Under the pieces are notes generated by a model. The model ran no database searches and was not told the origin of the DNA. It saw only the letters and a list, made by a program, of their open reading frames with translations. Shown here in pieces: positions 54,301 through 54,669 of a stretch of 64,000 nucleotides of DNA (position 1 is its first letter; every line of letters starts with the position of its first letter). Source of the stretch: Candidatus Falkowbacteria bacterium RIFOXYA2_FULL_47_19 (GTDB lineage: Bacteria > Patescibacteriota > Patescibacteriia > Patescibacteriales > UBA12075); NCBI GenBank assembly GCA_001780275.1, contig MFGB01000022.1, forward strand, positions 1,249-65,248, given 5' to 3'. The translations under genes and the position numbers were made by a program.

Positions 54301-54549
54301 TTATAAATCAATTATTATTCTTTTTCTAATATCCTTTTTGCCATCACTACTTTTTAAAAACCTCTCCCTTTTAATCGCTTCTCCTTTGGTTAAATAAGCT
54401 TCATAGCATAATAACCTCAAGGGATGCCTATTTCTTGTAGATTGAACTTTTCCCTCTAGGTGCTCTTTCATCCGCCTCTTTAAATCTTCGCTATACCCAA
54501 TATAAAAATTTTGATCTTTTTTGCTATATAAAATATAAACGTAAAACAT
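54301..54549 (-). CDS. GIY-YIG nuclease family protein (82 aa)
   Basis: MFYVYILYSKKDQNFYIGYSEDLKRRMKEH..R..Y.A...EA...E..LK. The listed 152-aa ORF has an N-terminal extension that reads through tRNA-like/hairpin DNA, so I start at the M at 54549. Confidence 0.8.
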   Translation of the reverse strand: MFYVYILYSKKDQNFYIGYSEDLKRRMKEHLEGKVQSTRNRHPLRLLCYEAYLTKGEAIKRERFLKSSDGKKDIRKRIIIDL

Positions 54550-54552
54550 ATT

Positions 54553-54669
54553 GAGACGCGCAAGGATTCTCCCGGCAGCCGCCGGGCGCCCCGCGGCTGC
54601 GGGGCGAACCCTCGATACGCGTGAACGTATATCTGATTTCGAGTCAGACGCCTTCGACCCTTGTCCGGC
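54553..54669 (-). pseudogene. 5'-truncated tRNA-Ser(CGA)-like sequence with a 36-nt insertion in the T-loop
   Basis: In sense: D arm GCC-GGACAAGGGTCGAA-GGC, anticodon arm TCTGA-CTCGAAA-TCAGA, variable arm ATACG-TTCACG-CGTAT, then GAGGGTTC-[36-nt twin hairpin, 54570-54605]-GAATCCTTG-CGCGTCT-C. I could not find a matching 5' acceptor strand. Confidence 0.6.

Follow-up and report, generated by a model that had tools for sequence, protein, structure and literature searches.

A GIY-YIG nuclease gene, twin hairpins and a split tRNA-Ser(CGA) gene in a Falkowbacteria genome: a probable tRNA-targeting selfish cassette

In a 64,000-nt stretch of contig MFGB01000022.1 from Candidatus Falkowbacteria bacterium RIFOXYA2_FULL_47_19 (the window, i.e., the whole stretch of DNA that was analysed), a block of 565 nt (54605-54041) interrupts the resident tRNA-Ser(CGA) gene on the minus strand between positions 56 and 57 of the T-loop; the block has a twin hairpin at its start and another at its end. 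The block contains twin hairpin A, a gene for an 82-aa GIY-YIG nuclease, an intact tRNA-Ser(CGA) gene and 62-nt tandem units ending in twin hairpin B. Beyond this locus, GGTTCG-twin hairpin-CGAATCC is a recurrent module, found in many Patescibacteria and in some other bacteria, where it is coupled to a clade of the nuclease and is always accompanied by a duplicated or replacement part of a tRNA. We read the locus as probably a tRNA-targeting selfish DNA cassette of the homing type, specific for the T-loop and with hairpin-only derivatives.

The split resident tRNA-Ser(CGA) gene and the inserted block

Positions 54659-54605 are identical over 55 nt (100%), from D-loop to T-loop, to the intact tRNA-Ser(CGA) gene of a sister Falkowbacteria genome (L092), which stands at the same place after a Vut_1 gene 94% identical to that of the window and has no GIY-YIG gene. 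Within this stretch the resident gene runs from the D-loop to C56 of the T-loop (54606-54659); its anticodon, variable and T arms are well formed, and the anticodon loop is CTCGAAA as in the intact copy. Its 5' acceptor strand GGAGGGG is found at 54696-54690, in a segment that also holds the start of the D-arm (54680-54696; GGAGGGGTGGTTCAAGT) and aligns with GGAGAGGTGG, the orthologous position after the Vut_1 stop of L092. This strand is set apart by a 20-nt insertion in the D-loop (54660-54679), a single hairpin with a perfect 6-bp stem (TCCGGC-ATTC-GCCGGA; DNA fold -7 kcal/mol, z=-2.2) that is missing from the intact L092 tRNA. The displaced 3' end (AAATCCCTCCCTCTCCGCCA) lies at 54021-54040, matches CCCTCCCTCTCCGCCA of L092 and of a second relative (L093), differs at two bases from the 3' end of the incoming tRNA, and is followed by the same terminator as in L092. 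Joined together, 54696-54680, 54659-54606 and 54040-54021 restore the whole acceptor stem, and ARAGORN at default settings calls the product as tRNA-Ser(cga); for this call the D-loop insertion has to be removed.

A preliminary description of the window, made from the letters alone, had taken the upstream sequence for a truncated pseudo-tRNA that starts at 54669, having failed to find a 5' acceptor strand. Its derivation from a tRNA is borne out by the 55 nt shared with L092 and by the default ARAGORN call of the reconstruction, but the extent has to be revised: the sequence starts at 54696 with its acceptor strand in place, and what seemed truncated is a whole resident gene split in the T-loop, with the 3' strand of T-stem and acceptor at 54040-54021. 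Scoring of the upstream copy with and without its 36-nt insertion, suggested there as a check, did not bring out a tRNA: unmodified it has no Rfam tRNA match at E<=10, and default ARAGORN made no call either way. The upstream copy is therefore a pseudogene. Relaxed ARAGORN settings (-ps80) do call it, with the local stub as acceptor strand; this call was rejected, since 25 of 500 shuffles (5%) were called as well and the acceptor pairing is spurious. Weak Rfam matches (sX4, Plastid-psbl-rps4, mascRNA and others) fall far below their gathering scores and are explained by tRNA-like parts. A group I intron was likewise rejected: no intron family is among the Rfam matches at E<=10 over 53900-54800, the T-loop is where the insertion lies, and it is followed by a second, complete tRNA.

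The left end of the block is twin hairpin A (54570-54605), 36 nt that lie between GGTTC and GAATCC and are made up of two perfect GC hairpins (GCCCCGC-AGCC-GCGGGGC and CCCGGC-GGCT-GCCGGG). It is followed by a GAATCC stub, the 3' half of a T-loop, and a 14-nt spacer before the ATG (together 54550-54569); related loci show the same CGAATCC and a short variable spacer, and the stub is distinct from the resident 3' end, which reads GAATCCCTCCCTCTCCG in L092. Next come the GIY-YIG gene (54301-54549), which is the sole open reading frame (ORF) of the block, a 4-nt leader ATTC (54300-54297), and the intact, apparently incoming tRNA-Ser(CGA) gene (54296-54207; called by ARAGORN, 55.9 bits against the Rfam tRNA model). 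Two identical 62-nt units (54083-54206) then follow, each composed of AGGTTC, twin hairpin B and AAATCCCTGTCTCTCCGCCA, the latter being the 3' end of the incoming tRNA, and the right end of the block is an AGGTTC stub with twin hairpin B (54041-54082; sequence inspection and DNA fold). The pattern is real and not due to chance: all features on the minus strand were present in the order, at the coordinates and with the hairpins first described, including the insertion of the same architecture at the same T-loop point in the tandem units (54206-54021). Within the 64-kb window, perfect GC-rich hairpins stand side by side at this locus only.

The incoming and resident tRNAs diverge in anticodon stem, variable arm, T arm and acceptor; the 5' half of the incoming one resembles, together with the ATTC leader, the tRNA-Ser(CGA) of L093. 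The cassette appears, on sequence grounds, to have brought its own tRNA gene; with a whole tRNA-Ser(CGA) gene in the block as a substitute, the cell is left with a functional copy. For the three 62-nt units Tandem Repeats Finder (TRF) gave a period of 62 with 98% matches, and a single unit folds as DNA at -19.8 kcal/mol (z=-3.8). Another assembly of the same species (L083) has the last unit only (4194-4255) and lacks the two identical ones; the GenBank record of the locus has an N-gap inside the array (L084, about 4259-4291), and most short contigs break within it (contig ends of L085-L091). The number of units is therefore uncertain or polymorphic. A one-unit block measures 441 nt and consists of twin hairpin A, stub, GIY-YIG gene, tRNA, AGGTTC and twin hairpin B. 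The extra units may have arisen by unequal recombination or slippage between the tRNA 3'-end direct repeats that flank twin hairpin B. A CRISPR array was considered and rejected: the units are wholly identical save for two bases in the last, and the "spacer" is always the tRNA 3' end.

A comparison of orthologous loci, also suggested in the preliminary description, sets the occupied window against L092 and L093, neither of which has the GIY-YIG gene. L093 (Vut_1 86% identical) is a clean empty site, i.e., Vut_1, 9 nt and tRNA-Ser(CGA), without hairpins; L092 bears a nested hairpin and then a duplicate of the tRNA 3' end. Thus hairpin elements visited the locus before, or independently of, the GIY-YIG gene. 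At the place that corresponds to the D-loop insertion of the window, L092 (3705-3790, 5' of the intact tRNA) also holds a 48-nt insert with a hairpin, which stands between a partial 5' duplicate (GGAGAGGTGGCTC) and GTCGAAGGC. Hairpin insertion sites appear to include all three of D-loop, anticodon loop and T-loop. Candidatus Falkowbacteria bacterium RIFOXYB2_FULL_47_14, from the candidate phyla radiation (CPR; Patescibacteria), encodes an identical GIY-YIG protein with the same neighbours.

Recurrence of the module beside tRNA and nuclease genes

Relatives of the nuclease were sought in one genome per species; at least 554 were confirmed, and the best 80 loci were analysed. A tRNA gene lies within 100 nt of the nuclease gene in 46 of these 80 loci, and in 36 a tRNA gene on the same strand follows less than 60 nt downstream. 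The density of tRNA genes was 3.22/kb within 100 nt of the nuclease gene vs. 0.09/kb at 1-3 kb, same-strand tRNA genes within 100 nt being enriched about 36-fold, and all adjacent tRNAs (51/51) were co-oriented with the nuclease gene.

In the clade of the window protein the partners are mainly tRNA-Ser (GGA, GCT, TGA, CGA) and tRNA-Tyr; sister nucleases are located at different tRNAs (Ser-GGA/GCT/TGA/CGA, Tyr, Arg), with several copies per genome. Genes of other clades lie after a tRNA, beside tRNA-Trp or tRNA-Cys, or next to no tRNA; our claim is therefore limited to part of the UPF0213 family. In clades with a tRNA 80-180 nt upstream no 3' duplicates were found, and what we say of the architecture covers the other clades. 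The clade beside tRNA-Trp or tRNA-Cys (L043, L061, L063, L072, L077) has a single hairpin (e.g., CCCGCAGCTGCGGG), which comes after an anticodon-loop-like CTCCAAT and before CGAATCC; this looks like a variant architecture.

A strict twin-hairpin scan of the 80 related loci found the module in a GGTTCG...CGAATCC context 23 times, the window's own locus (L001) included, and at 15-41 nt before the ATG, the spacing seen in the closest clade, in 16 loci. In the arrangement termed type A, a leader of 0-18 nt is followed by tRNA positions 1-56 ending in GGTTCG, the twin hairpin, CGAATCC, a short spacer, the GIY-YIG ORF, 7-40 nt and an intact tRNA; in 13 loci the upstream copy matched the first part (5') of the downstream tRNA at 93-100% identity and the repeat always ended in GGTTCG, and diverged upstream copies were present in two further loci. 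In type B (L039, L041, L042 and L074, with a tandem pair in L038), an intact tRNA is followed 0-6 nt later by the ATG, the GIY-YIG ORF, GGGTTCG, the twin hairpin, and CGAATCC with the tRNA 3' end. Solo modules, which have no GIY-YIG gene, follow tRNAs in L009, L017 and L024 and precede them elsewhere; a minimal one (L155) consists of positions 1-56 of tRNA-Pro, a twin hairpin, CGAATCC, four bases and an intact tRNA-Pro. The window joins a type A left end to a solo-type right end, a combination also seen in L017, L116, L119 and L149. The module was also found in the anticodon loop of tRNA-Ser(TGA), after CTTGA and before CGAAACC (L015 2944-2977, L024 2942-2975, L009 2906-2939), and the anticodon-loop modules with a GIY-YIG gene come from Smithella/Syntrophaceae and one uncultured bacterium.

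A twin-hairpin pattern that held no T-loop bases matched 88 times in 80 analysed loci of a metagenome scan. At 37 of the 88, where chance expectation is far below one, the two halves of the T-loop were both present, as GGTTCG and CGAATCC on either strand. Among these 37 matches, 25 had a tRNA no more than 53 nt away (Ser, Val, Thr, Pro, Lys, Gln, Met or Arg) and 13 had a GIY-YIG homologue on the same stretch, as did the anticodon-loop-like matches L144 and L160; many contigs are short, so that not finding a GIY-YIG gene close by is hardly informative for the remaining genome. A soil class of 16 loci with GTAGCG...CGCTAC flanks has neither tRNA nor GIY-YIG gene (among them L104, L105, L111, L112, L117, L121, L134, L136, L139, L141, L143, L150, L152, L153 and L157). 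It is a separate class, similar to repetitive extragenic palindromes (REPs) and bacterial interspersed mosaic elements (BIMEs), and its GTAG flank presumably echoes the REPs associated with REP-associated tyrosine transposases (RAYTs). With 23 instances in the strict scan and 37 of 88 matches in the metagenome scan, the T-loop specificity argued in the preliminary description from two sequences is strongly supported, and a link between module and GIY-YIG gene is supported by the 15-41 nt distance in 16 loci and by hairpin types that change with the nuclease clade.

Across 22 aligned instances, compensatory double changes occurred at 9 of 14 hairpin pairs and one-sided changes at none; pairing was retained in 95.5% of cells vs. 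33-48% with slid partners, and the covariation of all 500 of 500 shuffles was below that observed. These instances were chosen by the hairpin scan, an ascertainment bias that inflates the pairing, while their shared position is independent of that selection. Loop 1 is ATNC and loop 2 is its reverse complement, GNAT; the insert lies at the centre of the palindrome TTCGAA, between TTC and GAA, and the module as DNA is two-fold symmetric. Such dyad symmetry, needless for an RNA signal, points to recognition at the DNA level. Hairpin form follows clade: the Ser/Tyr modules have 8-bp GC stems with 4-nt loops, those of L038 and L039 have 7-bp, AT-richer stems, and those of L041, L042 and L074 have 6-bp stems with 3-nt loops. 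Two other origins were rejected: P-nucleotides or hairpin opening as a source of the palindromes, since the hairpin sequences are not derived from the flanks, and a 2-bp CG target duplication, since in tRNAs with TTCAAAT the 36-nt insert falls cleanly between TTC and AAAT.

The nuclease, comparable systems and the flanks of the block

The protein matches the GIY-YIG domain PF01541 over residues 1-71 (E=1.6e-16; 60.8 bits vs. a cutoff of 22.6). Across 36 homologues Y16, G18, R26, H30 and E62 are invariant and Y3 and Y5 are at least 90% conserved, and we assume their catalytic roles by analogy with I-TevI. The closest solved relatives are PDB 1zg2 (UPF0213 protein BH0048; E=6e-12) and 1ywl (EF2693; E=8.9e-8). 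The 82 aa form a catalytic domain with no auxiliary domain, which places the protein among the UPF0213/stand-alone Slx1-like proteins; we take E. coli YhbQ to be another of them. The stand-alone prokaryotic Slx1-like group is the minimal form of GIY-YIG protein, without auxiliary domains (PMC1564403). The window protein shares with BH0048 and EF2693 both sequence membership and the minimal domain, while a tRNA linkage distinguishes only some clades of the group. The literature searched describes no function, tRNA linkage or hairpin linkage for UPF0213.

Compared with classical homing endonucleases, the gene is optional, being present in the window and absent from L092 and L093 at the Vut_1/tRNA-Ser locus, but the separate DNA-binding domain that accompanies the nuclease in the classical enzymes is missing. 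The NCBIfam "group I intron endonuclease" model reached 27.8 bits vs. a cutoff of 56, over residues 4-39 only; no NCBIfam model matched at its cutoff and no PHROG matched. Among 50,697 phage records there was no match, among plasmids one distant match, and among viral contigs five distant matches only; carriage by phage or plasmid was rejected on this near absence from the three collections. Several related loci hold GIY-YIG copies that are partial or have a start other than ATG (L008 3001, ATA; L019 3001, ATT; L036 847; L075 141-314), which would fit the decay of a selfish gene.

SegB of the T-even phages resembles the system in that a GIY-YIG gene lies among tRNA genes and in that its tandem repeats recall the 62-nt units and the tandem pair of L038. 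Seg proteins exceed 200 aa and have DNA-binding domains, whereas the window protein is an 82-aa catalytic domain encoded on a bacterial chromosome, and the cassette adds a conserved twin hairpin, a fixed T-loop insertion point and partial tRNA duplication. SegB, a free-standing enzyme encoded beside phage tRNA genes, cuts tRNA-containing DNA, and recombination at microhomologies after its breaks yields tandem tRNA/segB repeats (PMC13096335). The double-hairpin elements of Allomyces mitochondria and the GC clusters of yeast mitochondria are likewise short, GC-rich, two-hairpin elements in AT-rich genomes, but they belong to fungal organelles and have no tie to tRNA T-loops or to a UPF0213 nuclease, the comparison being one of descriptions. 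In Allomyces a mobile endonuclease ORF created a hybrid atp6 with a displaced gene fragment, in association with double-hairpin elements. These elements, as Paquin et al. (2000) are relayed in a passage of PMC7218506, are short, GC-rich, optional between relatives and thought to be mobile. A third parallel is that of fractured genes, in which a host gene is also broken in two by an inserted endonuclease gene; there split inteins restore the protein, whereas here a duplicated or replacement tRNA restores function at the DNA level. Fractured genes with free-standing homing endonuclease genes were reportedly described by Dassa et al. in 2009. A literature search, which left most subscription journals outside its coverage, found nothing that connects small GIY-YIG genes with hairpins inserted in the T-loop or with partly duplicated tRNAs. 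Set beside these systems, the cassette would be homing-type selfish DNA with a real chance of representing a new class.

As for the flanks, the Vut_1/YhhQ transporter gene on the minus strand ends at 54704, 7 nt before the tRNA-like sequence. On the other side an intrinsic terminator (53988-54018, minus strand), the sole terminator-like site in 53900-54900, closes the tRNA/GIY transcription unit, and a convergent Lon-like protease gene lies beyond it. No sigma-70-like promoter was seen in 53900-54900, and the block is therefore probably transcribed together with its neighbours. With Vut_1 and the Lon-like gene as neighbours, no transposase or recombinase gene adjoins the cassette in the window. 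A 152-aa ORF (54301-54759, minus strand) runs from the end of Vut_1 through the pseudo-tRNA and the hairpins in frame into the GIY-YIG gene; gene callers annotated 138- or 152-aa products in other assemblies, and the N-terminal extension of protein P0012 is a translated twin hairpin. These products and this extension look like annotation artefacts. Elsewhere in the window, 7-nt tandem repeats (AATTTCC, CAATATC, ATTCGAA, TCGTAAT, TTCGTAA, TTCGACA) are scattered at 3119-3153, 5217-5245, 9366-9396, 9703-9741, 10635-10694, 10824-10855, 11030-11068, 58673-58697 and 60636-60663, and similar heptamer runs stand 5' of tRNA genes in L135, L155 and L176. The stretch 35424-37672, probably a gene for a repeat-domain protein, holds long tandem repeats (periods of 102-219 nt, 73-82% matches).

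The selfish-cassette reading and its alternatives

From the association of module and gene, the GIY-YIG protein may cut or mobilise the junction, as first proposed. The small nuclease, probably as a dimer, would break DNA at the T-loop core, between TTC and GAA, of an unoccupied tRNA gene, or alternatively at an extruded twin hairpin; recombinational repair would then copy the cassette, as in homing. The carried tRNA part may serve both as homology for this repair and as the replacement gene, and hairpin-only copies may be non-autonomous derivatives or footprints.

Several points weigh against this reading: i) the 82 aa contain no recognisable DNA-binding domain, so that sequence-specific homing is hard to picture; ii) nuclease activity, cut site and transfer are predictions; iii) a nuclease that cut every T-loop TTCGAA would be lethal, and the adjacent intact tRNA keeps TTCGAA; iv) exact duplicates of many different tRNAs are left unexplained by the cassette model; v) some UPF0213 clades adjoin no tRNA; vi) L092 has a hairpin and a 3'-end duplicate without the GIY-YIG gene, so hairpins can exist, and perhaps move, independently; vii) roughly two in three T-loop modules from the metagenome scan lack a GIY-YIG gene on their contig; viii) covariation was measured on instances that a hairpin scan had selected; ix) assemblies disagree on the number of units in the tandem array; x) nearly all data come from metagenome-assembled genomes.

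Points vi and vii feed the main rival, which we consider unlikely: the twin hairpins would be an independent repeat, similar to REPs or miniature inverted-repeat transposable elements (MITEs), moved by another enzyme or by host recombination or replication, and the GIY-YIG gene a passenger at a shared hot spot. Consistent with it, just 13 of the 37 matches in a T-loop context share their stretch with a GIY-YIG homologue, L092 combines hairpins with duplicated tRNA ends in the absence of the gene, and the same twin-hairpin pattern occurs in the 16 GTAGCG...CGCTAC soil loci without tRNA or GIY-YIG gene. REP/BIME-RAYT systems and IS200/IS605 elements also have paired GC-rich palindromes, a fixed short target without obvious duplication, and non-autonomous copies that outnumber the gene-bearing ones. 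A passenger gene does not, however, account for the fixed distance of 15-41 nt between module and ATG in 16 loci or for a hairpin type that tracks the nuclease clade; the short contigs make the lack of a nearby GIY-YIG gene little informative, and no gene for a transposase or recombinase adjoins the cassette in the window. The flanks differ as well, being GGTTCG/CGAATCC and not GTAG; at the locus, to which the search was confined, there is no Y1 transposase, and neither HUH TnpA nor TnpB accompanies the GIY-YIG gene, the only ORF of the block. GIY-YIG enzymes are hydrolytic nucleases, by themselves incapable of strand transfer.

The other explanations fit the data poorly. It is improbable that the GIY-YIG protein is a housekeeping factor, e.g., for tRNA or DNA maintenance, co-transcribed with tRNAs, the hairpins being signals for RNA processing or stability and the tRNA fragments by-products of ordinary duplication of tRNA genes. 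The co-orientation of all 51 nearby tRNAs, with spacers of 0-40 nt, and the single terminator and missing promoter-like site of the whole block would suit such a factor, and from a GIY-YIG/TrmH fusion earlier authors suggested an RNA role for prokaryotic Slx1-like proteins (PMC1564403). A housekeeping gene would hardly be present or absent among close relatives, patchy and multi-copy at many different tRNAs, and partial or defective in its start codon (L008 ATA, L019 ATT, L075); nor would its RNA signals require a loop 2 that is the reverse complement of loop 1, occur as solo modules with tRNA-end duplicates, or destroy the tRNA copy that they occupy.

Very improbable is that the fragments are remnants of serial integration and excision by tyrosine-integrase elements at the T-loop or anticodon loop of tRNA genes. 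Such elements resemble the cassette in target, in the replacement tRNA part and in the displaced part left as a direct repeat: the insertion lies in the T-loop at most loci and in the anticodon loop in L015, L024 and L009, and tRNA 3'-end direct repeats flank the module. T-loop and anticodon loop are said to be the two sublocations known for integrases (Williams, in 2002). Here, in contrast, no integrase is found in or beside the block, from Vut_1 to Lon; the "island" measures merely 36-440 nt, and the inserts as a whole 0.04-0.6 kb; the 5' part of the tRNA is duplicated in most cases, and the replacement is often this 5' part or a whole tRNA; and the conserved hairpin module at the junction has no counterpart in att sites. 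Least probable of all, and scarcely credible, is an assembly artefact in which chimeric or collapsed repeats of metagenome-assembled genomes mimic tRNA fragments and tandem units: short contigs do break inside the 62-nt array, where the GenBank record has its N-gap, and L083 has one unit vs. three in the window, but the GIY/pseudo-tRNA junctions are identical in 9 independent assemblies (ENA, NCBI, JGI, Logan) and the architecture recurs in dozens of unrelated assemblies and on long contigs, leaving only the unit number of the array uncertain.

A more far-reaching form of the selfish-cassette reading is possible, though we hold it only tentatively: a new class of mobile element in which a minimal, probably dimeric, structure-specific GIY-YIG nuclease reads folded DNA and drives the copying-in of hairpin-bounded cassettes that replace tRNA genes. 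The nuclease would recognise the twin hairpin with its dyad symmetry as well as stem-loops in tRNA genes, namely T-loop, anticodon loop and perhaps D-loop, and the 36-nt hairpin-only derivatives would spread in trans.

The selfish cassette would account for the tRNA fragments, GC-rich hairpins and tandem repeats of tRNA ends found beside tRNAs in CPR and other bacteria, all of which confuse tRNA annotation and break short-read assemblies. In the window an essential tRNA gene would have been replaced by a foreign copy that the element itself brought. For the widespread UPF0213 family, with its at least 554 confirmed relatives in species-representative genomes, the reading offers a testable function as a selfish nuclease targeted to tRNA loops. 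If what the nuclease reads is DNA structure and not sequence, it would make a site-specific tool of unusually small size and a new model of target finding by nucleases that consist of a catalytic domain only; the folded-DNA form, if true, would give a route for horizontal replacement of tRNA genes and the first function for the large UPF0213 family.

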